From Bilabrum cf. latius (Eukaryota), in contig OZ237770.1 in the NCBI GenBank assembly GCA_965178125.1, positions 186,001 to 250,000 of the forward strand: 64,000 nt of DNA, read 5' to 3'. The translations under genes were made by a program, and so were the position numbers. Under the pieces are notes generated by a model. That model worked only from the letters and a program-made list of their open reading frames with translations. It searched no databases and had not been told where the DNA came from. This document shows, one piece after another, positions 1 through 64,000 of the stretch (position 1 is the stretch's first letter; the number at the start of each line of letters is the position of its first letter).

Positions 1-928
1 GCCCCGCGGTCGTCCCTCCTCGCACCACCGTGCGATGCACCTCCCGCACCGCGCGAGGGTCTGCTGACCGGGTCCAGCCGGATGGTGGCAGTCGCCCTGT
101 GCCTGTTGGTGATCTCGCTCATGTCCAGCATGCGGAGTGCCCGCTCCATGCCGTCTCTGGAGAGGAAGTGCACCCGGGCCCGACCGTCCCCGATCACGTC
201 GGCCTTGCCCACGTCTGCAGCCTGCCGCATGTGGTCTTTGACGTCCTGCGGGGTGTGACGAGTGATGGTGTGACGAGTGATAGTGTGACGAGCGCGCAGT
301 CATGGGTCCGATGCATCGTGCATGGTGCGCAGGACTGCAAGGACAGCGCGAGGCACGCGTCCTCACCTGCCAGCTGGTGCCGTCTGGGATGCCAGTTACT
401 TCCACGGTGAATCCAGTCTCGACGGCGGGGCTCCTCGCCGGCCTCTCACGCCCGGGCGGTCCCCGACGGTCGCCCCGATCGCCGCGATCGACGCGGTCGC
501 GCGGGCCAGCTCCCTTGGCAAACTCCACGGTCACGCGCCTACCATCGAAGTTCACGCCGTGCCTCTCCCTGACTGCATCTGCGCACCCAATAAAAAATGC
601 GGTTCGCATGAAGTAATGTTGGCATGAGGCCTGCTTGCGATCCATGGCAGTGCCTCCGAGTGGAAAGAAGTGGGCCCCTTTGACACTGCTGAAGAAGCAG
701 TACCGCGACACAAATCCATAGGTATCGGATCAAAATCATGCAGCTATTGGACTTACCCTCCGCATCTCTAAGCTCGTCGAATGTCACAAAGGCAAACGCG
801 ACGCCAGGCTGTCTGCGGTTGAGCTTCACGCTAATCGTGCGAATGGGTCCAAACTTTTCGAACATCCGGCCAAGCTCGTTCTCGCGAACATCATCAGGGA
901 GATTTCCGACGAACAAACGGCCAGCCAT
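1..928 (-). CDS. SRSF1: SR splicing factor, SRSF1/ASF-SF2-like (two RRMs); 3' end runs off the window
   Basis: ATG at 928. RRM1 reads LFVGNLP...AFAFVTF. Introns 756-579 and 366-246 (GT-AG). The spliced product gives the pseudo-RRM signature SWQ|DVKDHMR. Confidence 0.85.
253..294 (+). repeat. Three tandem 15-bp-period copies of the GTGTGACGAGTG motif at the 3' end of SR-gene intron 2
   Basis: GTGTGACGAGTG at 253 and 268, GTGTGACGAGCG at 283. Confidence 0.9.
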
Positions 929-1444
929 GGTAATTATTGAGCTCGTATGTGGCCAAAAGCATGCCTGTTTGGCAGACTGAGATTCTGAACTGGCACGCAA
1001 CAAACAGTCCGAGAGCGACCATATCAAATACAGTAGCCGCGCGGTCTGTTTATTCGTAGACCGCTCGCTGGCGACAATATTATTTTATATACTGCTGCTT
1101 AGCGGGTTCAGGCCTATCATAGTCGCTTGCTGCCGAGCAGTCGGCCGATTGATCCACACGGTCCACTCGGCAAAGGAATCAGCATATTTTCTGACTTGGC
1201 TTGATACCCGTAGCCACAGCAATACGAGGATATGAATCCTTCCACATTTGGTTAGCATCGTGGGGCCCGGGCTGGCGCTGGCCCTGGAAGTGGGCAGGAA
1301 TCGCAGGGTGGGACGCACCACGTTGGCGCGCGGCCTCGTCCAGGGGCACCCAATGGTGTCATGAGGGTGCAAGGGCTGGCTGGAAATTGGAGTTCAAACG
1401 GAGCAAGGCCCATACAGCCAGGCAGGCCAGGGCCGGGTTCTGCT

Positions 1445-4400
1445 ATGGCAGGCCAGTCCCAGAGCAACGCTGGCGGCAATACTGCTCGCCCCGCGGTCCT
1501 TGGCCAAGCAGCTTCTGGAGCGCGACCGCTGGCAGTTAGACCACCTGCATCGATGGGTGTATTTGGATCTGGAAGGCCGGCATCTGCAGGTGCATTCGGA
1601 GTTCGTGGCCTTCCGGGCTTGCCGGCTGCGAGCGGTGCTCGCCCGCGAGCAGTTGCCCCGGCATCGGCCCGGCCCAGCACTGCGCACTCGTCACACGGAT
1701 CGGTCACGGCACGGCCGGGCTCCATGCAGGGGTTCGGTCGCCCCGTTGGACTGTCGTTCGGCAGGCCTGGGCCCAGCACTGGCACTGGTACAAGCCCAGG
1801 CACAGGGTCGACTGGATTCGGGCAGGGCAAGGGCAAGGGCAAGGGCAAGGGGCAGGGCCGTGCTGACCCCCACGCGGGGCACGGCCCGAGACCGTCTGGC
1901 GCGCACTCGTCACAGCCAGTCCCGAGACCACACCAGCCGCAGTCCATTCGGCCCCCTCCACAGTCCCGGTCCCAGCCACCGACATAGGCATAGCAACCGA
2001 CATAGCCACAACCACAGCCACAGTCACAGTCGCGAACACCATTTGCACCCGGCCCAAGGCCCGGCTCGTTCGTGCGACCACCCGTAGTTCCGCAAAACGG
2101 CGCCGCGCACGGCGCACGGCCCGGCCCCCCCTCAGGCGGAGGTGTGGTGAAGCATCCCATGGTGCGACCAACGGTGCGGCCGGGGCACCAGCCGCAGGCG
2201 AGGCAGGCCAACCCACCCCCGAGAATCGAGCCTACACAGGCCCCCCGCGTTCTCTACACGAGCGCGGGGAGGCCCCAGTTCTACAACACGGGAACCGGGA
2301 GCGCGCTGCCTCCGCCTGGGCACACCCATTACGTTGTGGAAGATGAGGGCAACGCTTCGCCGCGCTGCCTTCGATCGACGCTGTACAGGGTAAGGCCTGA
2401 GATTTGCAGTGCATGCTCATGTGATGCTTCGCTTGTGCTCCAGCAGCTGCTACATGCTCCCCCTTGCAGTGTCACCTCCTATTTTCCGAGCATGTGGTTC
2501 TTGACTTCCGCTCTCCATTCCCATTTTCAACCACTTCTTCTTCGCCCCTCCCCCCGCAGATCCCGACGACCAAGGCCCAGCTCGAGAGCACGCACCTCCC
2601 CCTCGCACTGTGCGTCACACCACTGGCAGAGCAAGCCGACGGAGACTCGCCCATGGAATGCGTGGATTTCGGAGAGGCGGGCCCTCCACGGTGCAAATCG
2701 TGCAGAGCCTACATATGCGCGTTCAACAACTGGAAGGACCAGGGGAGGAAGTGGGACTGTGTCATGTGCGAGACGGAGAACGATACACCGGTGGATTACG
2801 TGGGACCGATCGACCACACCGGGCAGCGGCTGGACAGGCGGGACAGGGCGGAGCTGTACAGGGGCTCGATCGACTACATCGCGCCCAAGTCGTACTGGCA
2901 GAGGACGCCGCTGGGCAGCCTCCAGCAGCCGCATTCGCCCTCGTTTGTCTTCCTCGTCGACTGCTCGGCCGCTGCGGTTGCAACCGGCGCGACGTCGCTC
3001 GCGATCCGATCCGTCCGAGACTGCCTGGATTCTCTGCCGGCCGGGACTGCCACCCGCGCGGGGGTGGTTGCCTACGGCCGGACCCCCTTCTTCTTCAAGT
3101 GCGCCAACACAAAAGTGTCCAAAGAGGCCAAGGAAGCCCACGCCATGGCGGCGCAGCAGGCCGCGAAGGGGGGTAGACCCCCTCCCCCGGGGCCCACCCC
3201 GGACCACGGGGAATACCCCGAGGAGGACGGGGGTCACCCCATAGTGGGGCGGATCCCCGTGGCGGAGGGTGTCGACCTGGAGCACCCGTGCGGCGTTTTG
3301 GCTCCGAATTCGCTGCTGGCGGCCCTGTGGGCGCCGGCCCGGGATGAGGCTGGTCAGCTGTAGGGGGGGCTGGTGCGGGCCCGGGGCCGCGCGCGTCTGG
3401 AGGCTGCCTTGGGTCAGATCGAGGAGGCCGCGTGCGGGGGCATCGAAGGGGCCCCTCGGCTGGCGGACGCGGGGCGGTTGCAACCTCCTGGGGAACAAGA
3501 GGGGTACCAGTCATGGGCGCTGAGGGGGGAGCCCGCGAGAGACTGCGAGGCGGAGGAGGAGGAGGAGGAGGAACGGAAGGGTGCATCGCACGATGGCACC
3601 TCGTGGAGGCCAAGCCAGCAGGACGTGGTCGACACGATCCGGGGCTCGGCACCGGGCCCGACGAGTTTGGGTGCAGCGCACGGTATTTGTTAGGATAGTC
3701 CCGTCGCAGCGAGGGATGCTCGGGGCGGCTGGTTTGTTCCCTCCTCCGAGTCGTGCGCCGTGTCGGCGGTGGCAGCGGTGGTCGACAGTCTCGGCCACTG
3801 CGGAGGCCGGGTCATCTGGTTCGTGGGACGGGGCCCCTCGGTGGGGATCGGCGCAGGTGTGACGAGTACATTGGGGGCGGGTGTGACGAGTGCGGCGGGT
3901 GTGTACGGGACGGACGGCGAGCGGTCGCTGTACACGGCCAGCTCGGAGGGTCCTGCAGTGCAGTGCACCGATGCATTGGGCGCGCTTGGGAGGGAGGCTG
4001 TGGAGAGGCGCGTGTGCGTGGATCTCGTGCAGGCCTCCTCGGGGGATTGCGGGGCCGCGGTTCTCGGGATCCTGCCTTAGCTGACGGGGGGTGCGCATCT
4101 GCGAGTTCCAGAGATGAGCGACCCGGGGAGGAGGGCTAGAGCTGCAGCGGTGCTGGCTCGGGCGGGTGTCCCCGGGGGAACAGGGGGGCAGGGTGCCCCC
4201 GGTGGGGGCCCGCCTGGAGGTGGGGGGGCTGGTACCCCGGTAGCTGGAGGGCCAGCAGTAGGTGCATCGCACGGTGGTGCAGCCCCAGGCAGCCCGCCCA
4301 AAGCCACCGGACGGGGGTTTGCCGGCGGGCCAGGTCTCCCTGCCTCCGGAGCCGGCGGCACCACCGGCCCCCCGCCGTCGGGGCCGGGTCACCATCGGAC

Positions 4401-6555
4401 CTCCAGTTCCGGTTTGAGCGTGCACTCTGCCGCTGCCCGCGCGCTGCAGGGCAAGGGCAAGCGCGGGCATGGCAGCAGCACTGGCAGCGGGGGCCCCCCC
4501 GTTCAGATCAGGGCAGACGGCCTGGGCTCCCCGCAGGGGGGTGGCCAAAGGGGTTCAGCCTGGGGAACAACGTCGGCGCAAGGCAGTGCTCCGCCGCAAG
4601 GATTTGGGGGCGGGCTCCCGCCCGACTCGATTCGGGCGGGCGCGGGCTTGGTGAGCGGTCCTGTCGGCGTGTCGGGTGGCGGCACGCCAGTGCCAGGCAT
4701 GGGCACCGCCGCTGGCATGCACCACGGTCCTACTGGTGCCGCGGCAGTGGATCACGGCTGGGGCTTGGGACCTCTGCCTTCCGAGTTTGAGCTGTTTGGA
4801 GGCGCGGGGCAGGACGGGGAGCCTGCCGTGCCTCTTCGTGTGGCTGCTCGACGACTGCGGGACCAGCTGTGCTTTGCGCTGGGCCAGCCGTCTGGGGCCG
4901 CGGCGATGTTCAAGCTCAGAACAAGCAAGGGACTCGAGGCGGGCGCGATGAGCGGAAACGTGCTGCCGTAGTCCAACGACCCCGGTGCGTGCGACATGGC
5001 TGGCGTTGGTCCGCTGTCCACCATCGTGATTGACCTGGGGCTGACCAAGACGATCCCATCGAGGGGCACTGAATACGTGCAGGCTGCTCTGCTCTACACG
5101 ACTGCGTGGGGCGAGAGACGAGTGCGGGTTCACACGCTGGCTCTAGAAGCCAACGACCAGAGCAGCTACACATACAGGTTCGCGGACCTTGGAGCCATCG
5201 GATGCTACCTGGCCCACAGAGCAGCGGATTAGGCGGCCATGGCTCCCATGAAACAGGTGCAGACGGACGTGGTTAGGACGGTCCGTGAGATGCTAAAGCA
5301 CTACAGGATGGAGGTGGCTAGGAATCACAGGCAGGGGCAGCTGATCCTGCCCGAGGGTCTCAAGACCCTGCCCCAGCTGACCACTGCCATGCTGCATTCA
5401 ACGGCGTTTCACCACAACCAGGGCCAGGCACACGCCACCACCGCGCAGAGGTACGCCTCGCAGGGTGCGGAACATGCGCCGCGCGGCGTGTTCGGTCGCG
5501 ACCCCGGGCACGTCCTGTCCAGTGACCCCACGGGTATGCTACCCCTGAGGGTGGGGTCCCCCATGGTGGGGGCAGGGAACACAAGGTGGGCTTCCATGGA
5601 GGGACCCTGGCTCACAGGCATCATGGGGGTGAGGGTGACCGCGGACGCGCGCGCGGCTGCACTGCACTGTGCGAGGGGGTTGGCCCCTCAGGAATGGGTC
5701 CGTCAGGTCTTGCCACGGTGCTTCTGGGTCAACCGCCCGGACGAAGAGGAGGCAGGGACATGGATGAGGAGGAGGGGCGCGGTGGACGGGGAGCACCCCG
5801 ATGAGGCACCAAGGGGCGGGAGGGACTGGACCATCGTGCCCATGGAGCTCTACGCAAGCACGCTGCACGTCAGGATCGAAGGGTCTCGCAGGATCGCACT
5901 CGTCGACGCGGCAGCACCCATCGGGCCGGTTCTGGTGATCGGTTCGAAGGTGCCCGATACCGACGTGGAGGCTCTGTTCGGGCCCGAGGATGGCGGCTGG
6001 ACGAGGTACCTCCCCAGGGAACAACAGGAGGGTGGGGTGGAGGGTGCCAGCGAAGAGGATCGGTCGCGCCGTGGATCCACGGCCAGTGGTGCTGCGGTCG
6101 GCGCGGGCGTGGAGGCCGGTAGCACCAGCAGCACAGGCAGCAGAGCGAGCCATCGGAAGGGCCGAAGGAGCCGGAGGAAGAGCGACGAAGAGCTCTGCCC
6201 CTAGCAGCTAGCGGCACGCCTGCCGCCGCGGCCCGAGGTAAACCTCTGGCGGCTCGGTGTGGGAGGCGTGAGCGGCGGCAAGCGCGACAGGGACAGGGAC
6301 AGGGGCAGAAACCTAGGCATGGCCGAGGCGCTCGCCGCGGTGCTGGAGGAGCTGGCGAGGCAGAGAGCGGAGACAAACCCGCGGCCCGCCACGCTCCAGG
6401 CGATTTGCGCCTCGGACGGACCGGCAGCGGAGGAGTGGCTGGGCTGTTTGCTGGTGGAGGACGAGCTGGACGGCTCGCCCTCGTACGTTGGGTCGCTGTG
6501 CGACGCTCACCTGGAGGTGCAGGAAGCCTTGGCGCGTGGAGGTGGGCTGGGCTGA
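1445..6555 (+). CDS. SEC24: COPII coat subunit Sec24 (~1646 aa when TAG is read as Gln)
   Basis: P/G/Q-rich N-terminus, GNASPRCLRSTLYR|IP (intron 2390-2559), zinc finger RCKSCRAY...WDCVMC, FVFLVDCS, QAALLYT...ERRVRVHTL, GQLILPEGLKTLP. Seven track ORFs from 2464 on share one frame and are separated only by TAG (9 TAGs in the gene). Ends TGA. An alternative ATG lies at 1361. Confidence 0.9.
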
Positions 6556-8664: not shown

Positions 8665-8813
8665 TGTGGTCTGCTTGAATCGCCGTGGCTCGGTTGTTGC
8701 ACTTGGGATCGATATGACGAGTTGCGGGCTTTATAGATACACGCTTCAAACCGCGATAAATCAGATCGAGAACGGTCGCGAGGAAGCGTCACGGGCTACG
8801 GCCCGGTGAAAGC

Positions 8814-11557: not shown

Positions 11558-12653
11558 GGAACCGTGCCCAGGAGGGCTTCGCGGTGATGCCACCTTTTCG
11601 AACGTTCTTGCGATAGTACGAACCTCCGCCGGCGGCGCGGCGTCACACCAGCAGGGGCCCGCGTATCTGAGTCATTTGTACCATAATCTGCGGTACGTAG
11701 GCGAGAATTGCGAGCATATACGGGCACGAAAACAAATACTCCCCTGTTGTCAGTATACAACCAGAATGGGCGCTTGTGGAAGCTTGGTGAGCAATGCCAG
11801 ACCGTGATGGACTAAGGACTTGCGCACCTCCCAGGGCGCACCACAACGATTGCACGCAATATCATGGACAAGCTTGTGTAATTAAACTAAATAATGTTGT
11901 GGATGCATTCAGATAAGCAAGGAATTGTCGCAGTAGCTACCAGCCACAGTTGACGCGTCCAAACAAGCCTCGACGCTACATCGCCGTGAGTGTACCTGTG
12001 TTGAAGAGAGCTCCTCATGCAATCTTTATTCTAGCTTTGCAATATAGTTGCGTTGCTGGCTCAGGTATACCAACTTCAGTTCGTCCAGTGTGAGTTGTTG
12101 CCAGCCTCGTCGAATACCGTGTTTTCTTGCACGCAGACTCATCCGCATCCGGGTCCTCATCCATAAACGTAGGCGTGAGCGAAACGAATTGCCCCAACTT
12201 AGACAGTTGGGCTATTAGTTATTCCTTAAATGGCGTATTTGCGTTGTCTTTTCGATTCTAGAAGGCACGGACAGAGGCCCATGGTGCAGTTGAGTCCAGA
12301 GCAATGATTCTGCCCTGTGGAGTGGACGTCGTCGCACTTGTCCGTCTTTGCAAGCCCAGTAAACAAAAAGAGTCTCGCGTTCTCACTTAAGGACATCGCA
12401 GGGCAAGACAGTACTGGAAGGGCATCGTGGCGGCGGTCGCACGGTTGGTCGCAAACGTACCCAGCGACCGCCATCACTGGGGCATGCGCGCATGCCCGGA
12501 AGTAGAGCTGCAAACAGCGGAACGACTAAGCAGTACGACGTCCTATTGCTATCAATGGCTTTTTAGGGTGATGGTGCGGACCGGCAGCAGCCCGCCCACC
12601 TTAAGCGGAGTGCCGGGGGTGCCGCCACATTGCCGGATTCTGGTCCGACGCCG

Positions 12654-14675
12654 ATGATGGGTGGCAGCCTGAGGGTTCCCAAGCTAGATTTTACCAGGCT
12701 TCGAAATGGAATTACAAGGAAAGGCCAGGCTTCGGCGGCACATACGATTAAGAACAATAAGAAAGTGAAGCCGAAGCGGACGAGTAGCACCAAGCGCCGA
12801 ATCAGGGGCGGGGTCTCCTGGGATCCATCAGATTCAGCGGCGCCGATCTCTGATAGGCAATCGCACAAAATGAAATAGAAAAGTTCGCGATAGCTCTGGC
12901 ACGGGTCAACGTCCAGCTCGGATGGCGCCCGCTGGCGGCCCCCGAGAGAAAATGGCAAGGAAGTATCGGGCTCGAGCAAGTGTTCCAGCAAAGCCGAGCG
13001 GCGCATTTCGGGTGAGGATGTGGCGCAAGACGCACGGGCTGGGCTTCGTCGGCCTGTGACGAGTGAGGAAGAAGAGCACCAGCAGCAAATCGCCTGGAAA
13101 TCGCACGCAAGTCCAAGCCAGCGGCATCTCAACGACGAGCCGACCACGACAATGGCTGCCTTCGATGCAGCAGGAGCAGCCGCCGAGCCTTGCAACTCAC
13201 CGAGGCCAGTACAATACGATCTGACAGATATCCCGAGCAGTAGCCACGCATCCGGCACGGGTGATTCGAACCTAGCAGCTCGCAAGAGCTGTGGCACTGA
13301 GGTCGCGACCCACCCGGTTGCAACCGAAGAGCTCGACAGCGCACTCATCCGGGTGCCCAGCATGGGACAAGTGATGCAAGGAAGAGAAAGCACCCGGTAG
13401 GGACTGGGAAGGGTGCAGGGCATTGACGCGCACGATTCGCGCGCGTGGGTGCACTCTCGCTGGGGAGTTGTCGGTGGTGCCGCGCCCAAGCGGAACATTG
13501 ATGCTGATCCCCCTGTCGCAATTGCCACCACCTGTGGATCGTCCCACACCAGGTAGTCGGCAGGTCTGGGCGCCGCGCAATACAGCGGAACCAGTCCCCT
13601 GACTCGTCTGCCGACTGGCCTCACCGTCTCAGCCGAAACAGACGGTGGCAGCAGCCCAAACGTCGTGGGGGGACAGCAGCACCCAGTGCCGGTAGCAGAC
13701 ACATCTTACGACAGGGTACAGCGCAGTGCAATGCACCTCACATTACCGAAGACCGCTAGCAGCCCCCGGCCGAAACAGGCCGACTTGCCCAACGGTCCGC
13801 TGTCTGTGGTTCACTCGTCACACGCAAGTCTCACTCATAATGCAGTTGATCAATGCAGCGATGGTGACGATGCAGGTAAAGATGTGGCCAAGATGGCCAA
13901 AGTTGCGTGCTCGGTGGACCAACCCGGCAAGTCGAACCGTCTTCACTCGCATTTCAGGGAAAGAGACCCCACTGGCACGCGCGGTGCGATCTCCGGCTCA
14001 ATGGACGACAGTAGCACCAGCAACGGCAGCAGGATCACCCACATTACCAGCAGTGGCAGCAGCAGCAGCATGAGCAGCAGCAGGAGTAGCAGGAGCAGTA
14101 TCGACAGCAGTCATGCCGGCACAGGCGACTTGGAGCAAGATCCCTCGCAACAGGCGCAATCGCGAGCGCCCAGACCACTCGTCACACCGGCACTTGTCCG
14201 GGAGCCGGCCTTGGACCGAGGGCACACTCGTCACTCGAGTACCGCAGTTGCCCTGCCAGTGTTCCGGGATTCGACGGCGGCCTCCTCGGAGAACGCGGAA
14301 CCCAAGCGAACCTTCGCTTTCGAGGACCGCCCCAAGCTCCGGAAAGTTGCAGCCTGCTTATCGAATGAAATGTTGAAGAGAGGGAACGAGAGTCTGTCAT
14401 GCAAGACGTGTTGTAGTGGAGGTGAGAGGGTTGTAGCGCCGGCTGAGTTTGCAGACGGAGAGCACCGTGCGACGAGTGAGAGCCACAGCACGTCCGACGA
14501 CCCGCCCTCTCATACCTTCAGCGAAGAGGTGCCCATGACTTCCGTGGCAGCGAAGAGTCTTCGCTCCGCCGGTGGGATTGATGCCTCACTTGACTCCGAT
14601 CGCCTGCCGGCAGCTTCCAGTCATCAGGAGCGGCATGGCTTGCGAAGGAGATTGGCTGCTGCGTTGGATGGCTGA
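12654..14675 (+). CDS. Hypothetical low-complexity Ser/Arg-rich protein (~673 aa with TAG=Gln)
   Basis: ORFs 12630, 13020 and 13665 share a frame and are joined through 4 TAGs with no TAA or TGA. Ends TGA. No domain recognised. Confidence 0.6.
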
Positions 14676-14991
14676 TGCTTCCTTTGGCCGATGCGTATGT
14701 AGCGCAATCATTATAGCCGGCATTAGCAACCCGCACACGTAGGGAATTTGTTTCGTCAGGTTGACGGCACGCCGCATCAGCAGTGAGCAGGTGCTTTGGA
14801 TCGGCTGCTCGGCTTTCTGGGCATCAGTTTCTTATCTTTTTTTGCATCAGAGCGGTAGTAAACAAGCAACTCAGTGTTTGACTTCGCGTAAACTACAAAT
14901 TTATGTTTATTCTGTGACATGGCACGGCAAAATCAAGTTCACGCAGTCTCACTCGTCATAAGAGCTGCAAGTAGATCTATTCATATCATAA

Positions 14992-16702: not shown

Positions 16703-16720
16703 ATTCCTTGCACAATCACA

Positions 16721-17105
16721 GGAGCTGGTGGTCAGGTGGGAGAGCTGGCAGCGGGAGTTGCGCAGCTAGGAGTGGCACTACAGCAGGCTGGTGGAGCTGG
16801 TGGTGCGTAGGGTTTGGATGCAGCTGGAGCGCCAGCTGTGCCCGCAGTACCTGCTGCAGCTGCAGTAGGAGCTGAGGGTGCAGCACCGGACGAGGCGGCT
16901 GATCCGAACGCAATCGAACACGAAGGCATCGCGAACGCAGATGGACCGCAAGCAGCGCAACTCCCCCACGGAGGAGCGGCCCAGCTTGCGGAGCCCATGG
17001 CGTGAGCTTGCTGATCCGTTCGACCTGCCCAGTGCGATTGCCTCTTGGGGTGGTCGTTGTAGTTGGGTAGTGTGTGCTTTGACTCAGACATATTATATTC
17101 TCTCT
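16721..17105 (+). mobile_element. 5'-truncated non-LTR retroelement B with a 25-bp target-site duplication
   Basis: TCTCTCTATTCCTTGCACAATCACA occurs at 16696-16720 and 17099-17123. An Ala/Gly-rich ORF tail is open from the 5' break through one TAG to TGA at 17005. The 3' end recurs three times at 36913-37219. Confidence 0.8.
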
Positions 17106-46760: not shown

Positions 46761-49700
46761 ATGCTCTCCTTGCTCCTAATCGTTCTCGCGAGTTACGCTG
46801 CGGCTCTTCGTATGACGTTTAATGGACATGCACTTAGACCAGCCGTGGGCTCCATTTCTTCATCTGGTTCGATCTTCTTCAGCGGCATTTCCCGCCATGA
46901 GGACCCCGGAACGATGAATTACTTTGGCAGCCGGGTGGCAGTGACATCGAACCACGCGTTCGCTGTAGACGACGACGATCCACAGAGCTACACAGACCCA
47001 TTCGCATCACCAGCGGACCCCACAAAGTCCCGCTTGTCGGTGTTCGGCATTTCCAAGTCCACGCTGCAGCCGGTTGCCCCAGCCATCGTGCCCAATCTCC
47101 TGGACACGCGCCCCAACAACCAGACAGCACCGCTGGTGGCAGCCCGCAGCGCCCTCGATGCCTGCGTCACCAGTAGCGGCTATGAGTACGTCGCTGCTGC
47201 CTAGGGCGAAGAGGTGCTCGTGTACGTCAGGTGAGGTGATGTGGACACTTCCCACACGCGGCGCGCGCACTCACTCGTTAGGGCCGGGGGTGTGAACACG
47301 CACTGCTCACTTGCCGGCTACTCAGCACCCCAATAACCCTAGCAGTATTCCCAGCTTACTAGTATTTCACGTCACAACCATTCCATTGCGCTATTTTCTT
47401 CCTCTGTGCCTTCATGCCTGGCCCTCGCAGTCGCTCGTCAGACGCGACAGGTGTGTTCCGCTTGCACACCCAGCTCTTCTCCAGCCAGTTCCAGGACAGC
47501 GACGGGGACTCGATGACGATTGACCGCAATAGAATCGATCGGCAGGTGGTGATCGACTGCGCCAACACATCACTCGCCGGGGTGCCCCCCCCCAGGGTCT
47601 ATGTCAGCTCGGGCGGCTCGCTGGAGCAGTGGGAGGACAAGCCTGGCTCCCCCCTCAACGAGGGGTACTGCAACCAGATCATGGAGCTCACATCTACCGA
47701 CGCGGACGGGGGCACCCCATTCGCAGTGCACGACATTTTTGGCTCCGAGTTGAACGCCACCGGCGACAACGCGACGTACTACCTCGGTGACGAGCCCGGG
47801 CTGGACGAGCTGACGTACGAGCCCAATGAGAATGACCCGAACGCGGTGCTGTTTGCCCCTCCTCTCATCAGCGGTGCAAAGCAGAGGGACCATCCGGCCC
47901 TGGGTCGCTTCGACGTCGATGGAGACCATCTGTTCGGAGCGGGCGACGACCCCAGAGTGTCTGTCCATAGATACCAGAGGAACCCCAGCACGCTCAAGTG
48001 GGAGCTGCAGGAGACGATCCAGCACGCCTGCCACGAGGAGAGGGATTACACCAACCTGCCCTCATCAGGGATTGACCTCAGACCGTTCAAGGGTACCACG
48101 ATCGCTGCTGCGGTGAGTCGTGCGCGCACGGATCCAAACTCTCCGATCGCTGAAATACCAACCTTCGCCGTGGGCTGCAGAGCCGAGACGTTCGTTCCAA
48201 CGTCTGCGGACAGCACTCAGGTATCAAACGGACTTGCAGAGGCAACAAGCACTCAGCGTGGGTCTGTCGAGGTCCGTATCTTCCGGAAGGCTGCCTCGAG
48301 GGACCAATGCAGCGGCGAGGAGGGCAGTTTCTGGATGCATGCGGAGCCCTTGGATGTCGAGCCCATCGATCTGATCGGGGGCGAGGTGACCGATGAGGAC
48401 CTGTTCAAGGCACTGGCGCCGCAGGTCCGATTCCTTAAGGAGACTGAGCTGCCGAGCGATGTTTCGGGTGATTTCGAGCGGGACTAGATACAGATATTCA
48501 TCGGTGACCCGGGCTTCAACGGTGCCTCGCGTGACGTCGGGCGCATAGTACTGGCGACTGTCACATTTGGCGAGACCAGCGCAGCTGCGCTTCTATCCTC
48601 GGATGACCTACCGATCACCACAAGCATCAACCGCGTGGTCACCAATTCTTACATCCCTGCAGCGTCGATTGTGGAAGACGCGAACAACCCAGTTCTGACG
48701 GACCAGTACTTTGGTGCTGGGGCCCTGGCCGTGGACTCGTTCGATCGGCCGTTCTACCTCTCCTCGGTCGTGTTGGTGCTTACAACCGTGCCGCAGGGGA
48801 GCCAGCCGTTCATTGCCAGCGTAGGACTCATCGAGGAGCAGGACAGGGTGATTGAAGCCCCCCAAGCGGGGTCATACCCCGCCCCCCCTGTGGGGTTTGC
48901 CAGCACCGGCATACAGGAGGAGGTGCCCAGCTGGAATCAGGCCACGGGCGGCGATGGACGACTCGGTGGGAGCATGGACGCCCACGGCACCTGGCTTGCG
49001 ATGTCCTTCGAGACCAATGTGACCGTGTACTTCAACGCGGAAGCGCCAGATCAAGATGACCCGGCCTCGGATGCGCTCTACGACTCAAGCAGGGGCGTGA
49101 CCCCCGTGTTTCATTCCACGGTCCTCTCGCCCGAGATGGTCCTGGGTAACTCGTTCAGTGCTTGGGAGGAGGACCTGCTGGACACGCAGTATGCGGGGAT
49201 GCTGTGGGGGGGATATCACGCTGACTCCTTCCCGGGATTCGTGCTGAAACAGTCGGACTACAGGGGGTATGCCAGCTTCGTTGGCACTCCGGTCGTCAGG
49301 TTCATCTCCGGGGATCGATCCCCGGACGGACAGCCCAGGCTCGCCGTCCTGCTCACGACGGAGAGGAGGCTGCCCCCGGCTTCCGCCACGGCAATGCTGC
49401 AGGATGGCTCCGCCAGCAGGACGCACCTTGTTGTGCTTAGGCCAAGGCCCAAGGTCCCGGCCAGTGCAGGGAACGATTGGTCTGCGGATTCATCCGACGT
49501 AGATCCAGCGTCTGTGCGGTGGCAGCTCGAGACCTCGACGGAGCTTCCGTCCGATTATCAGATGTGCGTGACTCGCTGCTGGGCCGCTGCAACGACTGGC
49601 ACCATACCCAACGAGTTTGACACCACGAGCGACTGCTCCAGCGGCGCGGACTCCGACTTGTTCTCCGCCCGGAACCAGCCGGCTGCCTGCACCCGGTCGT

Positions 49701-52700
49701 TGGAGATCTTGCAGGTCCCCACGGCCGCTTTGAGCGAAGAGCCGGCGGCCCCTGTGGCGGCATGTGCCAGCGGTAGCCAGCACTAGGCAGTACTGGTGCT
49801 ATCCAGCCCCATCACCAAGAAGCTGTACGCTGCTTGCCTCGACCTGTCCGGCGTGGGTAGTCAGTGGAACCAGCCGGGCAGGGCGAATTTGACGCTCCTC
49901 TCTGGTGCAACCACCGCAATCCCAGACACGGCTGCCGTGTCATCCGACCGGAACACCCTAACCGCGGGGCTGATCGTAAGCACCGGAGTGCTGGCTGGCC
50001 GCGGGATCGTAGCAGTCGGCTCGGACAGCGAGGCGCTCAAGCTGTTCTCTGTGAATGCAGCAGCGACCAGCGCAAGTCAGCTGTTCCGGCCCATCGCCCT
50101 TCGTGACGCGGTGATGAAGGTGTCCACTGAGATGTACGTGAGGCCCGGATTCGATGTCAGGATTCTGGGAGATCGGATGACCTTGCTGGCGGGTGTGCCC
50201 GCCATCGAGGCCAATCTCGCTGCAATGCCCGAGCCTGCCAACTTTGGCGAGATCAGAGCGGGCGACGTGGGCGTGTACGTGATCGGGCCGGTGACCGACA
50301 CGTCCTTCTCCACCGGCGATTTCAATTCCGAGTTCGACGCCATCACGGAGGAGGGTATGCTGCGTGACGCCTCTCAGCAGAGGGACATGATCGACACGCT
50401 GCAGGTGGTGCTCTAGGGTGTGATCAGGGCCCCGAGTGCTCTGAACGAGGGAGTGGGCGCGAGCCAGTTCGGAAGGAGCATCCTTACTGGGGGCGGTCTG
50501 TATGACGAGTATCGCACCGTGGGCATTGTGTGCCCTGCCAGCCCGTACGAGAGCTCTTCAACGGACACGCTCACCGAGTTCGGCATTGTCTTTTACAGGC
50601 AGGTGGTTCATCCCACGCAGGACGCATCCGGCACCAACGATGTGGCTGGGATCGGATCGTCCCGCCGATTTCCTGTCGAGACCACGTCATGGCTCGAGCA
50701 GCAGACCCTGATGGTGAATGGCTTCCTCAATGCGAGATCAAGTGCCATCAACGCGGAGCAAGGCAGCTTCCCTGGATACGACGGGACGACCGACAACCCT
50801 TGGGCGGTTGGCATGTATCAGTACTACTACGGCGGATTTGCGGTGGCTCGGACAGAGGATCGCTCGCATGGCCCAGGCACGCAAGCCACAAACCCCTCAG
50901 GGGCGGCGGGCAGCATGCCCCGCATTTTCCTGTAGAGCATGGGCCTACCTCGACAGGTGGATGCAGTGGTGCTGACTGCCGATCACACGGAGCTGGAAAG
51001 CGCTGAACTTGCCACAGGTAGGCCCGACTCGCCCATGCAGCAGCTCACAACGGCACTGCATGCAGCGTGCGGATTCGATGACGGGTCGGCGGCTGCGGCA
51101 GCTCTGACAGACGAGGGCGTGAGCTGCGCCACCGTCGTCTCCGTGCGCCCGTACGATGCCGCTGCGTTCGCGTTGGATCCGTTCTAGGTGGACCAGCTGT
51201 TCCTTTCTGAAGACTATTCTCTCGTGCCGATCGACATCAGGGGATTGGATCGGGAGAGGACGCTGATCCAGCTGAAGGAGCCCTCTAGTAGCACCTCTTC
51301 CTCGACGTCGAGCGCGGTCGGGCTCAAGCACGCCATTCTCAGGGATCTCACCGTCTCGGGAACCAAGGAGACGAATATTTCACCCACATCCGTTGCGGAC
51401 AGCGTGGGCGGCAGCGTGGCAGTGTCCGCTGCAGGCGTGTTCGACGTCAAGGAAGGAGGTCAGCTGCTCATGCAGCGCGTGAGGGTGCAGCACGGCTACA
51501 GTGCAGGCAGCGCGGGGCTGATCCGCATGCGATCCGAGTCGGCTCTGTTCGCCACGGAATCGATTTTCTTCTCGGGGGCAGCGACGACGACGGGGGGCTG
51601 CATCGGTGGTACTGCGGCCCACATCGAATTGTGGAACTCCACGGTCGCGTACTGCGGTGCGCTGGGTGCGGGTGGCGGCGGCATCGCGGTGGATGGTGAG
51701 TCGGCGGTTCAAATGTACGGTTCGCTGATTCTGGGGAACACTGCCGTGGGCAGCGGCGGCGGGCTGCTCATGTCCTCTGCCGGGCCCTTGGGTCTATTGG
51801 TGCAGGAGTCTGTGTTCGCGCAGAACGTGGCCAGTGGGTCCGGCGGCAACATGGCTTTGCTTTCAGTGTACGGCAGGATTGACGAGTCCTAGATCCTGGC
51901 GGGTTTTGCCACCTCCTCCGGAGGCGGCGTTCTGGTGGAGCAGGGCTTCAGTGGCGGCGCCGTTCGGTTCCGCAGGAGCGTGGTGGGCGGAAATTAGGCG
52001 GGCGAGGGCGGAGGCGGCGTGCTGGTGTCATCGGCGGGCGGCCTGGGTTCCGTTCGATCTGCGTTCGTGTACAACCGCGCCACAGGTGCATCCTCCAGGG
52101 GCGGGGGCGTGCAGGTTGCATCGGGGGCCAGATACAGCGACGTGCAGTCTGTCTATGGCCACAATGGGGCGGTCACTGGGGGTGGGCTTGGAGTGACCGG
52201 TGAGGCCACTGTCGAAGTGGCGGGATCCGTTCTCTATGACAACGCGGCAGACACAGGGGGCGGAATGTCTTGCGATGGTGAGAGCTCCGTCACGATCCAT
52301 GGGATGGCTGGGCTGCACGCTCTCTAGCACGCAGCGGGCTACGCGACCTTTCTGCAGAACACCGCCTCGGTGTCCGGAGGCGGCAGCTCGCTTCAGGCCT
52401 GCCGAGCCTTGCTGGTGAACGTCAGCCACACGGGCAACACAATGAGACAGAACTCGCGCTTCCGGAGGGTGCTCGGTCTGCTGGGCACTGAGATGTCAGG
52501 GGTTGGTTTTACCGGCGGGGGTGCTTCGAGGGGTGCATCCGGTGCGGACTACTTCGGGTTTGACCAGGCAATGACCGTGCAGGCCTCTGTGGATCCGGCC
52601 ACCGCGGCGCACGAGCAGTCTCCGTACTGGGAGGCCGACGGCAGCGATCCCGCGCTGGTGGTGGACGAGGACCAGCAGCTCTACTTCCGGTCTGGACCCA

Positions 52701-55700
52701 TGGATCGGATCATGCCCGCCTTCCGAACCAAGCTCCGCACCTACTCGGTGAATCCTCTCAGCACAGTGTCGCTCAGCTCGGACGGCGTCAGCTCCGGAAA
52801 CGGCGCGGGCATGTTCGTGGCTACCACGGCGGACGCAGCCGAGTCGCTGGACCCTCTCGACTCCAGCAGCATCCGGGTTCGGTGCTTCCGGTGCAGGTTC
52901 GTGGGGAACCTTGCGCTGGCTGGGCTGGGCGGTGCCGTGTACGCCGCGGGTGCCACGGATGATGACGAGTGCACCGAGGTGCCGGCCACGTGCACCACGG
53001 GAGCAAAGGCCATCAAGGCGACTTACCTTTCGTTCCTTTAGAGCTGTCCCCAAGATTTCCAGCAGAACTACGCCGGGGGCTCTGGGCCAGACGTGTCCTG
53101 GACGCAGATCGAGCCCACTGGCCTTCTCGCTGTGCTACTTAACGATGACACGCTAGGGGGAGGGGAGCCGGTCGCGACCCCGCACACCAGCCGGCCGGGA
53201 GCCTGTGACTGGGACTCGCTAGAGGGTCCCAGCTACGCGGAATATTCATTTTCCGACAGTGAGCAGACGCGCATCGAAGAGAGCGGAGCCTCCAATCGCA
53301 CCCAGGAGTTCCCGCTCTCGTCCATGCCTACCAACATCGGCTTCGTGCCGAACTACGGGGTCGAAACATCGCCCGAGCCGGGGTCTGTGCTCGCCGCCGC
53401 CGCTTCCAGTACGACCACAACCACTACCACTACCACTACCAGCGGTGGAAGCAAGTTCGAGGAGGCAGACGTTACCTCCAACTTTGGGGAGTCCACGCTG
53501 GCAGTGGAGCTGAGGGACAGGTACGGCTACCGCGTGGATGCAACGCAGTTCGGCCAGCTGATCGTGCGGGCCACTTTGTCGAGGGAGGAGACGCAGAACG
53601 TGGGGCAGTACACGGGAGACAGCACCGACTCGGGGACGGATCGCAGGCGCCTGCGGAAACATGCCAGGCGGCTCGGCAGGGGGCGTGGGTTTGGGGGCAG
53701 GAGACTGCAGGGGGGTGGCGGTGGCGACGAGGAGGATGATAACGAGCCGAGGCAAGGGGAAGATGCAGACGGGAATTTCCTTGACGGGACGGTGACGGCG
53801 GTTCTGTCCGAGGATGGCGTGGCGGAGTTTAACCAGCTCGAGTTCAGGGGGCGGCTGGAGGGTACAGCGACCTTCCAGGTGTACATCGATCCCAGCCTCG
53901 GCGTGAGCGCGTTCGGCACGGTCTTGCAGGTGGCTGACAACTGCACCGGCAGGTCAGAGTTCGACGACGACGATCTCGAGTGCAAGAAGTGCGGTGGTGA
54001 TTACGAGTTCTCCGACGGTCGCAACTGCTTTGCGTGCCCGGCAGGCACCGAGCTGAAAGAAGATTCTCAGTCTGCGCCCAGGGGGGAATGCCGCAGCTGC
54101 ACGAAGGGAAGGTTCTCTGCCGAACGAGATGACGAGTGCACCGAGTGCCCGGTGGGTCGGTTTGCAGAGAGCAGCGGAACCGCTGACGAGTGCACCGAGT
54201 GCCCGCCCGGCAGGTTCACTGCCCTGACGGGATCCACCTCGTGCGAGGCGTGCCCGTTCGGGTCCATCCAGCCGGTCGCTGGACAGTCGGGGTGCACCGG
54301 GTGCGGAGCCGCAGAGGTGTCCGTTGACTCGTCCACGTGCGCGTCCTGTCCCGCCGGGTCGATCCCCAACCCGGTTGCAACCACCCTCGATGACGTGGCG
54401 TGCGTCACTTGCCCTCGCGGCTCGATCTCAGCCGAAGGGGATGAGGAGTGCACCACCTGTCCACTGGGAACGGTGGCCAATGCGAACCGCACGGTCTGCG
54501 AGACGTGCCCAGAGTCCGACGGTGTGACCTGCACGGGCTCGGCGATGTCCCTGGACAGCGGGTACTGGGTGGACGTCGACGACGTGGTGGTTGAATACGA
54601 CACCGAGAGCAACCAGATAGTGAGGATGCCCGAGTCCTCCATCGTACACGTCTGTTCCTCCACGGCGGTGTGCGTGTCCAACCTGACCGATGCTGGGGTT
54701 GCGGTGGATGAAGACGGCAAGGCTGTTGCAGTGCTGTGCGCAGACGGGCACGATTAGGAAGTGCCCCTGTGCTCCGTGTGCGAAGGCGATTTCGCGCAGT
54801 TCAGCGGACAGTGCTCCAAATGCTGGTCCGAAGCCGCCAACACGATCGTCATCGTGATCACCATTCTGATTGCGGTGATCATCGCCGCTGCCATGGTTGC
54901 TAGGACGCGGGCGGCCGCCACAAAGGCAGCTGAGAAGGGCAATCTCCTGTCCGCAACCATCCGGATCGGGCTCAACTACCTCAAGCTGATTACCACGCTG
55001 GGCGCGTTTCGAGCAAAGGCGCCCGAAGTGATCGCCAGTTTGCAGGAGGGTGCATCCACGGTGAGTAACGGGCTGTCCTTCAACGTGCCGCCGGTGGCCT
55101 GCGCCTTTGATTTCACGTTCGTGGGTGTCTTCTGGGCCACCATGACCATCCCCTTACTGATCCTCGCGGGGTGCGCGATTGTGGCCGCGGGACTATACGC
55201 CAGGGCACAGTGCAAAATCCAGCGCGAACAGGCGAGGCGGAGTGAGCTCTCCCCTCAAGAGCAGGCTTCGCTCGATGATAGCGACCCTGTCCCGACGCCA
55301 AACCAGCTGTGGGACACGTACGTTGGCGTGTTCGTGAGCTCGGTGATCATCCTCGTCTTCCTCACATACCAGACAATTCTGGCCACCACGGTCAGCGTGT
55401 TTGACACCTATGACGTCCCGATCGACGGCAAGACGTACCTGAACGCCGACTTTAGAATCACGACGGATGACGCCGTGTACGACCAGCTGGTGGCAGGGGC
55501 TATCGTGTCGATGATCGTGTACGTGGTGGGCATCCCGCTGCTGGCCGCCTTCCTGCTCTGGAGGAACCACGACAGGCTGCACGTGCGGGAGGTTATCGAG
55601 TCCTACGGCTTCCTGTTCCTTGGGTACGAGATTGGGACCAAGGCCAGGGTCAAGAGGGTGGTGGGCGCGCGAGAGCGCGCTACCAGGAAGCAGCAGAACC

Positions 55701-57043
55701 TTGCGAGAGAAGAGAGGTTGGCAGCAGCGGCCGCCAGATCCGCGGCCCGCAGCGCCGGGGCAGATGAGGATGCCGCTGCGGAGGAGGCGGTGGCGCAGCT
55801 GCGTGCCCAGCGCGATGCAGCCGGGATCTCGCTGTCGGGTTCATCTGCAGACAACGCGGTGGATGGGTACCTCGTGGATGGGATTGCAGACACGATGGTA
55901 CAGGAGGTGGACATGGTCGACGATGACAGTGCCAAGAACAGCACCTTGGGTGGGGGTGCTGGCAGGACGGCTGTGATCGGGGTGGCCAGGGAACAACGGG
56001 AGGGTCAGGGCCAGGAGGAGGGCGGCCCGGATGGAAGCGATAGCCAGGGCATGACCCGGGTGGGTACCGTGGCGCTGATCCAGACAGCCAAAGAGGACGA
56101 GGACCCGTTGGTGGGGAAAAGGTCCAACTACTATTTCTGGGAACTTGTGGTTCTCGCTCGGCTCGTGGCGACGGTGCTGCTGAGCGTGTTTGTGGGGGAC
56201 ACGTTCCTGCAGTCGTTCTGGGCGGCGTGTCTCGTGGTCGCTGCGCTGGTGCTGCACCTTTCTTACGAGCCGTTCGAGGACAGGATTCTGAATGTCCTGG
56301 AGGCCAGCGCGCTCATTAGCGTGTTCACGACTCAGATGGGCTCTTTGCTCTTCTTCTTCAGGCAGGACCGCGACACCGAGCTCCTCGTGACATTCGTGCT
56401 GCTTGCCGTGAACATCGCCACGCTCCTGCTCTTTGTCCTCTGCGCCGCCGCGAGCGTGATGCCGCCCGAATGGCTGGCACAATCATGCTGCTGCCCTACG
56501 CTGCTGGTCAGGATCTTCCACAGGAAGCGGGCGGCGTTCGCAGTGATGGAGCTGGAGAAGCGGGCCTCGGAGCACAAGAGGCGGAAATCGAGGATGCTGT
56601 CTAGCGGTGTGACGAGTGGTAAAGACGGTGTGACGAGTGATGACGAGCGGAAGACCCAGCTCGCGTACGCTGCTAGCGTGCCGGTGACTCAGCCTGCGCA
56701 GGCTGCTGGAAGCGGGGCAGCTGCCGCGGTGGCACCTCATGCCGGGCGAGATTCCCGCTCCGAATCCACGACGAGGCAGGCGCTGGCCTCATCTCACCCG
56801 AATGCATCGAACCCGGCATCGAACCCCGGGGGGGACAGCGTCCGCGGCGAGATGGCAAGCCCTGGGCTGGTTCGGCCAGGGACCGGGGGCAGCGCGAGAA
56901 GTAGCGGCTCAGGGGGGGGCGGGCACAGGGTCACCCCAAGGGGGTACGGGGAGGGCTTCGAAGAGGCCGGTGTGGCGAGTGCGGTTGGTGGTGTGACGAG
57001 TGCGGGTGGTGATGGTGCAGGCGAGGGGAAGGACGACAGCTGA
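46761..57043 (+). CDS. Giant (~3360 aa) surface protein: signal peptide, FG-GAP-like region, Pmp-type beta-helix repeats, Cys-rich repeats, multi-TM C-terminus
   Basis: One intron (47231-47430), then a 9.6-kb exon in a single frame broken only by TAG (11 TAGs in the gene). GGG(I/V)...F..N.A repeats, C..CP.G repeats, SYGFLFLGY and YYFWELVVLAR in the TM region. Ends TGA. Confidence 0.85.
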
Positions 57044-62342: not shown

Positions 62343-62424
62343 GCGCGCAGCAGCGGTTTCGTGAATGTTGCGTGTAGAATGAAAAAACCTCAGGTGCACA
62401 TATTCATCAACAGCTCTCTAAGCA

Positions 62425-64000
62425 ATGAGTGGAAGGCATCCAGGAAGTGATTTTGGTGGATGGCTCATATCTGGGGCAGTTACAGGAGGTGTGGCGGCTC
62501 TTGCAATGATGATGTACCGAAAACAGCGGCATGATGCAGATTTGTAAGTGCGCCCTTGCCTCCAAAAAGATCACCTGGCATTGATAGGCCATTTGCATTA
62601 TTCCGCGTATGTGATAATTACTCATGGTGCAACGGTGCTCGCTCGCAGGCTTGCTCAGATACCCCAGCGGACGGCGGCCGAGATTCAGGAGCTTGTCAGG
62701 CAGACTTCTCTTGGGGGGAACGAGCCGCCGCTTGTTGCCACGCGTGGCGCCACCGCGCCATCGATGGCTTCTTCATAGCCAAGGCTAAGAATACCGGGCC
62801 TCAAAGCAGACATGCTTGCGGTGGAGCAGAGCACGTTCCTTCATGCGCAGCGGGCGGTCATTGTCAAGAAGCCCAAGCCGTCGTCGCAGGGGGGAGCAAG
62901 AACACAATTGGAGCAGTCCAGCGGTGGTCGCATGGACGGCACCGTCCTTCGATTCGAACAACAAGCCGGTGGAAGCAGCAGCAGCAGCAGCAGCGGCGGT
63001 GTTGGCAGTGGGCCAGCACCGCACCGGCAGTTGCGACCAAACTCGCAGCAGGAGTACAGAGCAGCTCCGGGAGCGCCCAGCGCACCGCCAGCCGATGCTT
63101 CCAATGAGTAGGACCCTCCCATTCGAAACGACAGGACCGCTGGCAGAGAAGAAGAAGATCCGCAGGCGCTGTCGGGGTCAGGTCGCCAATCCACCGGTGG
63201 AGCCGGTACCCCACGCGGCCAGGACCATCGCCGGGCCACATCGCCCACGCCCGGATTCTGGGGCGGAAGTTCCTCCTCCTCCTCCTCCTCCTCCTCCTCC
63301 TCCTCCTCCTCCTCCTCCTCGGCGACTTCGTCCTCGTCACAGGGGCCTGCCAGTGGTCCCACCCAGCCCACGGAGGCCCCTTTTGACCTCGAGATCAAGC
63401 TGCTCAAGGAGCGCAAGCCCGAGTCTACGTACCGGTCCCAGCTGCCCTTCTCGGTGATAGATGAGACAGGGCGAGTTGAGGTTGCGACCGGCGGCGGCAT
63501 GCCGGAGCCGCCGCTGGAGCCAGTCAGGACCCAGCACGTTGTGTTTGACGCCCTGAGCCCGGAGGACAGGTACCAGGCGGGGCGATCGGAGCTGCGGATC
63601 TCGGAGGTGAGGCATCACGAGGCCTCGGGGGTTAGAACCACCAGCTGGCCCAGCCCGCCGGCGTACGGGAAAGTGCCCCAATCCCCGGAGGCGGCCGAAT
63701 CTTTTTCGTCTCGAGAGATAACGTGGTCTGCGCTCCCGGTCGGCACCGTGCTTACGGTGGTCGGCACCGCACGGCGGCTGACCGAAGCAGGGCCTGACGC
63801 GGTCGAGATCGGACCTGGGACTCGGGGCGGGCCCGCCTATGTGACGAGTGAGACGCTTCCATCCCTTGTGCGTAGGCTCGACTCAACGGCTAGTATCACC
63901 TACGGCGTGACTGTGGCGATCGGATTCGTGGCTGGCGCCTTGACTGCAGTGGGGGTGTGGAAGCTGGGACAATGGGCTTGGTCCAGGCTTGGCGCGGGTG
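62425..64000 (+). CDS. MUL1/SP1-like GIDE-domain membrane protein (putative E3 ligase); truncated by the window end
   Basis: N-terminal TM, one intron (~62544-62649), LPFSVIDETGRVEV, LPVGTVLTVVG, PAYVTSETLPSLV, second TM. Two TAGs. A RING domain is not reached in the window. Confidence 0.65.
63271..63320 (+). repeat. (TCC)n tract encoding poly-Ser
   Basis: Directly visible in the sequence. Confidence 0.9.

Follow-up and report, generated by a model that had tools for sequence, protein, structure and literature searches.

A dispersed, letter-perfect 12–13-base word in the coding DNA of a eukaryote that appears to read TAG as sense, and its possible role as a recognition site

The window analyzed here is a 64-kb stretch of DNA assigned to Bilabrum cf. 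latius (contig OZ237770.1, positions 186,001–250,000; all coordinates below are counted from its first base), and a short DNA word recurs in it far beyond expectation, mostly within genes. By exact-string count, the 10-mer TGTGACGAGT occurred 25 times, 15 on the plus strand and 10 on the minus strand. An earlier note, made from the letters of the stretch, had listed 25 copies at these positions, and they were confirmed; its coordinates were one base lower, the preceding G being included. Alignment of the copies gave the full word gGTGTGACGAGTG[C/A], with a length of 12–13 bases, and the 12-letter word had a density of ~1 per 2,500 letters across the genes of this eukaryote and of its wild relatives. 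The word is non-palindromic, differing from its own reverse complement, and plus and minus copies were interleaved along the 64 kb, in which no replication origin is known. We tentatively favor the explanation that it is a lineage-specific recognition word acting at the DNA level, with biased repair or selection maintaining its exactness and protein tolerance deciding where it stays.

One hundred dinucleotide shuffles of the window contained 0.14 copies of TGTGACGAGT on average and one at most, and third- and fifth-order Markov models predicted 0.11 and 1.8 copies, compared with the 25 observed. For the 12-mer GTGTGACGAGTG, 17 copies were found against 0.01 and 0.28 expected under the same two models. 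The long open reading frames (ORFs; 37,470 nt, TAG being read as a sense codon, see below) held 22 copies, compared with 0.18 after synonymous-codon permutation (n = 300, proteins kept, maximum 2) and 0.04 after permutation of codon order. The earlier note held that its claim would fall if the enrichment vanished under high-order or codon-preserving nulls; it persisted under both (25 vs. 1.8 and 22 vs. 0.18), and the claim was not refuted on this ground.

Exact copies dominated. Exact, one-mismatch and two-mismatch 12-mers numbered 17, 15, and 8, against 0, 0.43, and 5.6 in the third-order null, and the 15 one-mismatch copies were the sum over all 36 possible variants. Nine of these 15 deviated at an end base alone; among the other six, an exact copy was found at a distance of at most 25 nt for three and of at most 300 nt for two, and one (43585) was solitary. 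The flank profiles of the aligned copies were flat beyond −2 to +2, save for codon periodicity, and nothing was conserved past 13 nt. A general excess of palindromes, which reached only 1.2–1.8× at lengths 8–14, and CpG depletion (observed/expected 0.92) were both rejected as candidates.

The tripeptide Val-Thr-Ser (VTS) occurred 17 times in 12,490 residues, where 5.0 were expected (3.4×). Fifteen of the 17 were encoded by GTG-ACG-AGT (GTGACGAGT), an encoding for which codon usage (0.54 × 0.35 × 0.11) predicts 2%; the T that closes the codon before VTS was also invariant, and VTS apart from the word was observed twice against five expected. These 15 shared encodings indicate that the signal belongs to the nucleic acid and not to the peptide, in agreement with the earlier placing of it at the DNA level. 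Both strands and several reading frames were used, as had been claimed, but the frames were uneven (per copy, VTS 15, SSH/Q 4, LVT 2, and TRH 1).

The stretch was carried by contigs from four runs of four studies, with no indels reported and 0–1 differences in long contig pieces outside repeated regions, and no polymorphism was seen at the copies in these contigs. When metagenome contigs were scanned for pairs of the 12-mer no more than 30 nt apart, at least 120 loci were obtained, most of which were unrelated local tandem repeats of any base composition. In one metagenome, however, 57 exact copies were dispersed over both strands of at least 16 contigs (97,036 nt), and at least two contigs of a second metagenome also carried dispersed copies on both strands. 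When the ascertaining pairs were excluded and the long array in one contig (L091) was counted once, ~13 further clusters were left in the 97 kb, compared with a uniform expectation of ~0.2. The word-bearing contigs encode eukaryotic proteins (HECT, SMC, and TPR), and reading TAG as sense lengthened ORFs at least 1.5-fold (maximum 5-fold) in 9 of the 16 contigs and in both contigs of the second metagenome, the other 7 of the 16 being assigned by source, composition and word alone. Restriction to one contig or a library artefact, either of which the earlier note had regarded as fatal, therefore does not describe the word, as it is dispersed in independent metagenome contigs and the stretch itself is present in four runs. 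In 596 Gb of prokaryotic genomes there were 25 matching loci, and in viral contigs two, all of them local GT-rich arrays with no TAG signature; the paired pattern alone is therefore not specific. Any 12-mer recurs among the minisatellites of very large collections. In an all-against-all comparison of the fetched loci, the relevant contigs gave identical pairs only (L072 = L119). A sulfatase-like gene at 33813–35840 of the window was colinear, exon by exon, with a gene at 2099–4109 of metagenome contig L119, at 46–70% amino-acid identity.

The word had been described as lying in a eukaryote, and seven GT..AG junctions in transcript-derived contigs, together with the Sec24 and SR-type genes, supported this. 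Contigs of runs X5 and X8 joined across seven GT..AG intervals that the X3 and X6 contigs kept, and they are therefore derived from transcripts; all seven introns start with GTRAG and finish with CGCAG. The genes in the window include Sec24, for which database matches reached 39% identity at most, an SR-type RRM protein, an FGGY kinase, and an alpha-L-fucosidase, whose best full-length matches were transcriptome proteins with 43–46% identity, including a choanoflagellate protein. A role for the word as a splice or branch signal was rejected: one of the seven introns carries it, as an internal array, and the exonic copies are unspliced.

TAG is very probably a sense codon in this genome. When it was read as sense, the longest ORFs grew from 875 residues to 3267, 1493, 1376, and 1050, and no comparable lengthening was obtained with TGA or TAA; 17 of 19 long ORFs ended in TGA. 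Examples, all on the plus strand, are 2425–6555, 17198–20350, 21267–25748, and 47240–57043. An X5 transcript contig spanned 2559–6688 with no differences, and in-frame TAGs therefore occur in mature mRNA. One in-frame TAG aligned with a Gln conserved in human Sec24C and Sec24D ("..VPQLTGG"), which suggests, from this one aligned Sec24 site, that TAG may be read as Gln; the remaining alignable TAG positions were uninformative. A tRNA scan and an Rfam search gave no match, and topic searches of the literature gave no description of TAG reassignment near the choanoflagellates, among relatives of the closest protein matches.

The copies of the word, exact at the stated 10-mer positions unless described otherwise, were distributed in the window as follows.

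252–294, plus strand: array of 2.7 units of GGTGTGACGAGTGAT, exact at 254 and 269, the third unit with T>C at 283–294; antisense to its gene and within an intron; Tandem Repeats Finder (TRF) interval 252–292, period 15.
1686–1695, minus strand: single copy, antisense, with the reading H-S-S-H, in exon 1 of Sec24 and in an X5 transcript contig (1048–2388, 0 differences).
1905–1914, minus strand: single copy, antisense in Sec24 exon 1, SSH/Q frame.
3857–3892, plus strand: two direct copies, at 3858 and 3882 (24 nt apart), read in sense as GVTS..GVTS, at the 3′ end of the Sec24 insert.
13055–13064, plus strand: single copy, sense, VTS frame, in ORF 12363–14675; an X5 contig spans 12402–14044.
13813–13822, minus strand: single copy, antisense, SSH frame, in the gene of ORF 12363–14675.
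14177–14186, minus strand: single copy, antisense, LVT frame, with one-mismatch copies at 14225–14236 (minus) and 14467–14478 (plus).
18205–18214, plus strand: copy in the FGGY-kinase gene, sense PVTS, within an 8-residue insertion relative to PDB 3gg4; an X5 contig spans 17129–18884.
18284–18295, minus strand: inverted one-mismatch copy near the copy at 18205.
18832–18841, plus strand: copy in the FGGY-kinase gene, sense GVTS.
19842–19874, plus strand: direct pair 21 nt apart, one-mismatch at 19842 (GVMS) and exact at 19864 (SVTS), in the Pfam FGGY_C envelope.
20008–20017, plus strand: copy, sense GVTS, within the Pfam FGGY_C envelope.
23436–23445, minus strand: copy, antisense, TRH frame, in ORF 21267–25748.
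25328–25337, plus strand: copy, sense DVTS, near the 3′ end of ORF 21267–25748, with an inverted one-mismatch copy at 25394–25405 (minus).
28965–28974, minus strand: copy, sense GVTS, in minus-strand ORF 28110–30875, where alignment to the paralog is gapless.
29085–29094, plus strand: copy, antisense, LVT frame, in ORF 28110–30875, again with gapless alignment to the paralog.
29175–29184, minus strand: copy, sense GVTS, in ORF 28110–30875.
36724–36733, minus strand: copy, the sole one outside the long ORFs, ~240 nt from repeated sequence at 36964–37200.
38328–38337, minus strand: copy, sense RVTS, in minus-strand ORF 38115–39494.
40574–40583, plus strand: copy, antisense, SSQ frame, in minus-strand ORF 40453–42009.
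43585–43596, minus strand: solitary one-mismatch copy, GTGTGGCGAGTG.
56607–56639, plus strand: two direct copies, at 56608 and 56629 (21 nt apart), read in sense as GVTS..GVTS, within the tail that closes the 3267-residue ORF at its C terminus.
56969–57011, plus strand: direct pair 21 nt apart, one-mismatch at 56970 and exact at 56992, sense; TRF period 21, 2.0 copies.
63840–63849, plus strand: copy, sense YVTS, in ORF 62548–63999, which carries a GIDE domain.

Twenty-two of the 25 copies fell in long TAG-sense ORFs, two (254 and 269) in a spliced-out intron and one (36724) outside. The word had been described as spread over exons, introns and intergenic DNA; the exonic and intronic parts of that description were borne out, and the intergenic part comes down to the one copy at 36724. 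The intron with the array lies on the minus strand at 246–366 (GTGAG..CGCAG), and the X5 and X8 transcript contigs skip 245–365. In the 20-kb part that was compared with the run contigs there were 13 copies, of which eight lay in transcript contigs, two in the spliced-out intron and three outside the transcript contigs listed. No copy was found in a defined untranslated region (UTR).

Within proteins, the copies were placed in the N-terminal region and the ~790-nt insert of Sec24 and, in the FGGY kinase, in variable stretches and the 8-residue insertion, and two (28965 and 29085) lay in the variable middle of a protein whose paralog aligned there without gaps. Several copies stood at ungapped but poorly conserved aligned positions (in the paralog pair and in FGGY_C), among the handful of sites that could be aligned. 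In the 3267-codon ORF they were confined to the last 150 codons, the first 9.3 kb being without any, and the pair at 56969–57011 fell in the last 25 codons. The pair at 3858/3882 was present in mature mRNA, and the alignment to the Sec24C structure in PDB resumed right after it. A word-based protein search for orthologs covering the copy sites found none, and an exhaustive ortholog search gave four matches, none of them over the copy sites, the best being a 119-residue fragment with 94% identity.

Several other features of these genes were observed. The Sec24 insert (~790 nt, 3106–3895) is lineage-specific and translated; it lies between segments of the trunk domain, has in-frame TAGs, contains seven of the repeated words of the window and ends in the motif pair. 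The ORF at 47240–57043 (plus strand) runs uninterrupted for 3267 codons with 12 in-frame TAGs, and its product has Cys repeats of the ephrin-receptor-like and ELAPOR-like kinds, with a C-terminal part that is transmembrane. The genes at 21267–25748 (plus) and 28110–30875 (minus) are paralogous, with 31–34% identity over ~800 residues; both products are Cys-rich with predicted membrane stretches and belong to no Pfam family, and the protein of 28110–30875, the one used as a query, had only four relatives among 1.84 billion representative proteins. A high-copy region at 14774–17441 showed a contig depth of up to ~2170, compared with ~58 nearby, and held no exact copy of the word. At least 55 nt from 17035–17090 recurred three times, at 36964, 37071, and 37148, and the sequences at 14774–17441 and 36964–37200 are probably a transposable element. 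An identical 38-nt stretch occurred three times, at 58273, 59824 (plus), and 61014 (minus), which suggests three recent paralogs in the region of 57–62 kb.

The word was not alone, at least four others being enriched. The palindromic GGTTGCAACC occurred five times against 0.05 expected (2976, 3476, 13316, 31800, and 54373), GTGCATYGCAYG five times against 0.07 (29, 3581, 4262, 24085, and 32161), and YYGGGGAACAM seven times against 0.37 (3488, 4560, 19404, 22316, 30127, 44317, and 51731); CAATCCACCGGTGGA was also enriched (18991, 21884, and 63187). GTGCATYGCAYG is the core of a ~20-nt word whose variable sites are the C of CpG. These four further words sit in coding DNA and recur, exactly or with few mismatches, in TAG-sense metagenome contigs; two of them abut at 3475–3498 and again in contig L023 near 2060. 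CAG runs were the commonest 8-mers of the window. The further words suggest a vocabulary of DNA sites, a point on which the earlier note was silent, as it was on the sense reading of TAG and on copies seeding tandem arrays. It is rather doubtful, although conceivable, that this TAG-sense eukaryote has a sequence-specific system that writes the word and a small vocabulary into its own DNA through word-biased repair or gene conversion. If true, the word would be a signature that propagates or marks itself and would correspond, in a nucleus, to the uptake sequences of bacteria or to the cyanobacterial HIP1, with coding sequence reshaped around it.

In the explanation that we tentatively favor, the word would be recognized by a factor that binds or processes DNA in a sequence-specific manner, and a process blind to gene orientation would keep its copies many and letter-perfect. 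Candidates for the process are word-biased repair or gene conversion (molecular drive) and direct selection on the site. In a mostly coding genome the word would land in genes, where protein function would filter its persistence, and it would persist chiefly where the reading is Gly-Val-Thr-Ser, within tails, variable loops and inserts peculiar to the lineage. Pausing, breakage or slippage at the site could produce the clustering and the small tandem arrays. The earlier note had named four candidate mechanisms (a protein-binding site, a modification or repair target, a recombination signal and molecular drive) and expressed no preference among them. We infer both a protein that reads the word and the drive or selection that maintains it. 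The TGACG half-site within the word had been offered as a possible cAMP response element (CRE); it is no evidence for one, because the word holds no full site of the TGACGTCA type, the half-site being followed by AGT.

The use of frames and strands was compared with a peptide-tolerance model, which gives each frame a share that matches how common its peptide naturally is. Frames were assigned from the longest ORF, with a minimum of 250 codons and of 1.5× the next frame, a rule that replaced a codon-likelihood classifier that gave wrong labels on RNA-supported exons. The clusters of the window were 13 in the VTS frame, 0 in the CDE frame, 7 antisense, 2 without a long ORF and 0 ambiguous; the corresponding numbers were 17, 1, 5, 4, and 4 for the main metagenome (at least 16 contigs) and 1, 0, 2, 0, and 1 for the second (at least two contigs). 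Pooled (n = 46), they gave VTS 31, LVT 4, SSH 6, TRH 4, and CDE 1 (67, 9, 13, 9, and 2%), where the model predicts 49–54, 32–34, 7–11, 4–6, and 2%, or 22–25, 15, 3–5, 2–3, and 1 clusters. The departure is modest (chi-square p 0.007–0.014) and mostly reflects too few copies in the Leu-containing frame. Easier mutational access to the VTS frame was rejected, as near-cognates were not commoner there: sites in this frame at 0, 1, 2, and 3 mismatches numbered 15, 3, 4, and 36, and at 3 and 4 mismatches the VTS frame had 36 and 225 against 46 and 267 for CDE. With near-cognates no commoner and frame use close to the model, an orientation-neutral DNA process plus a protein filter therefore suffices, and it explains most of the pattern.

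Several observations weigh against this explanation. Sense clusters made up 32 of the pooled 46, compared with 51–56% expected (p 0.012–0.075), and LVT was under-used (4 vs. ~15). Drive at the DNA level should load non-coding DNA at least equally, yet 2 of 22 clusters were non-coding against ~6 expected from a rough estimate of 28% non-coding DNA. The copy in the 8-residue FGGY insertion and the pair at the edge of the 790-nt insert fit an insertional origin. In the array of L091, which is the longest found (9.5 units of 42 nt; the others have 2–4 units), the word was intact in 6 of 10 units, with ~5% of its positions changed compared with ~3% in the spacer by hand count; individual array copies are therefore not visibly protected. 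We also know of no eukaryotic mechanism for such a drive.

A possible alternative, to which we give somewhat less credence, is that the word forms the core of a very short unit, mobile or prone to slippage, inserted at breaks together with a little variable sequence or spread by unequal exchange, which expands locally into mini-arrays and then decays, selfish or neutral and with no dedicated reader. Clustering speaks for it: gaps of at most 30 nt between neighbors numbered 3 against 0.28 expected, gaps of at most 400 nt 9 against 3.5, and the largest gap between copies was 16 kb (p 0.02). The close pairs were all direct, with no inverted terminator-like pairs. Arrays in the relatives had the common word with locus-specific spacers and periods of 14, 15, 17, 18, 21, 22, and 42 nt, in the manner of minisatellites, and these variable periods argue against a fixed telomeric-repeat template. 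An excess of exact over near copies would fit young copies, and the two insert-associated loci and the L091 word, which decays as fast as its spacer, also fit. However, 17 of the 22 clusters in the window were single copies, the other five being direct pairs or short arrays with periods of 15, 21, 21, 21, and 24; the share of arrays is unbiased in the window and inflated among the relatives, whose loci were ascertained through a word pair. Nothing is conserved past 13 nt, the flank profiles show no terminal repeats or target duplications, and to our knowledge no transposable unit is as short as 12 nt. Several copies occupy ungapped aligned positions, the same word is active in contigs, perhaps of other species, at loci without homology to one another, and neutral insertion should favor non-coding DNA, which the word does not. 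A remnant of a longer transposable element or of a miniature inverted-repeat transposable element was rejected, the flank profiles showing no similarity beyond the core.

It is unlikely that the word is an mRNA element, that is, a site recognized by a small RNA or an RNA-binding protein, required in many transcripts and placed in the least costly frame. The 32 sense clusters among the 46 classifiable ones would suit such an element, as would the retention of copies in mature transcripts, the invariant synonymous sites and the position of 9 of ~20 window clusters in the last fifth of their ORF (hand count). The word also starts with UGU, like PUF-type sites. Yet 14 of the 46 clusters were antisense, the intronic array is antisense to its gene, and defined UTRs held no copy; the sense excess was non-significant in the window (13 of 20 clusters, p 0.26) and is largely predicted by peptide tolerance.

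Selection on a Gly-Val-Thr-Ser peptide, for example as a modification site, would account for the 3.4-fold excess of VTS, but it is very improbable, being contradicted by the single encoding of 15 of the 17, by the shortage of other encodings (2 vs. 5) and by the antisense and intronic copies and the one outside ORFs. An artefact of assembly, a remnant of an adaptor or linker, or a trait peculiar to one contig is hardly credible, given the coverage by four runs of four studies, the frames kept open for up to 3267 codons and the dispersed word in independent metagenome assemblies.

Hyper-abundant signature words are classic in some bacterial genomes, and each has led to a mechanism (uptake, RecBCD control or methylation). 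In our literature searches, no eukaryotic nuclear genome was reported to carry a comparable word, and topic searches for a eukaryotic counterpart returned nothing relevant. A string search with the 10-mer and the 12-mer returned only papers without genome-related titles, which were judged from their titles alone to concern primer-type sequences. If a factor reads the word, the organism would give direct access to repair bias of a sequence-specific kind, or to the way in which a eukaryotic genome marks itself, and would show how such a process taxes proteins, one tripeptide being tripled here. The word is also a practical tag for the DNA of this lineage in metagenomes, and the lineage appears to carry a stop-codon reassignment (TAG).

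Chi and KOPS (FtsK-orienting polar sequences) are short, asymmetric, over-represented words that are read by RecBCD or FtsK and skewed with replication. Here, plus and minus copies interleave over the 64 kb, and the host lineage is without the bacterial RecBCD and FtsK machinery. HIP1 of cyanobacteria, an octamer, is palindromic and linked to orphan DNA methylases. It resembles the word in being hyper-abundant within genes and differs in its symmetry, as the word is a non-palindromic 12–13-mer; the secondary word GGTTGCAACC is palindromic. HIP1 (GCGATCGC) is described as hyper-abundant within genes and conserved throughout a clade, with a function long unexplained (PMC13756078, PMC4390886).

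With regard to repeats, the word has likenesses to two groups. As in the shared Jeffreys core of human hypervariable minisatellites, a core of 10–15 nt is common to arrays of differing unit length at many loci; unlike minisatellites, the copies here are mostly single, exact and coding, and the arrays are tiny save for the one of 9.5 units. Rickettsia palindromic elements and the telomere-like and CAG repeats of Eimeria are repeated DNA translated in unrelated proteins, which is also true of the word, and CAG runs are common here too. Those, however, are structured elements of 100–150 nt or simple tandem repeats, and the word is a dispersed single 12-mer with no flanks.

The earlier comparison with uptake sequences held at the statistical level. 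Like the DNA uptake sequences (DUS) of Neisseriaceae and the uptake signal sequences (USS) of Pasteurellaceae, the word is a non-palindromic 9–12-nt word found on both strands at roughly one per 1–3 kb. As DUS and USS are characterized in one study, exact copies dominate, and those in bacterial coding DNA double tripeptides, show frame biases and occupy poorly conserved residues (PMC2817400); the dominance of exact copies, the 17 VTS against 5, the tolerance-like frame use and the poorly conserved sites seen here are all of this kind. The close pairs here are direct, with no inverted terminator-like pairs, and non-coding DNA is not enriched, in both of which the word is unlike DUS and USS. The word does not belong to that family, as its host has spliceosomal introns and is a eukaryote, whereas DUS and USS serve uptake by competent bacteria followed by recombination; we know of no route of DNA uptake for such a host. 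Among the systems compared, uptake sequences in the coding DNA of bacteria are nevertheless the closest analogy.

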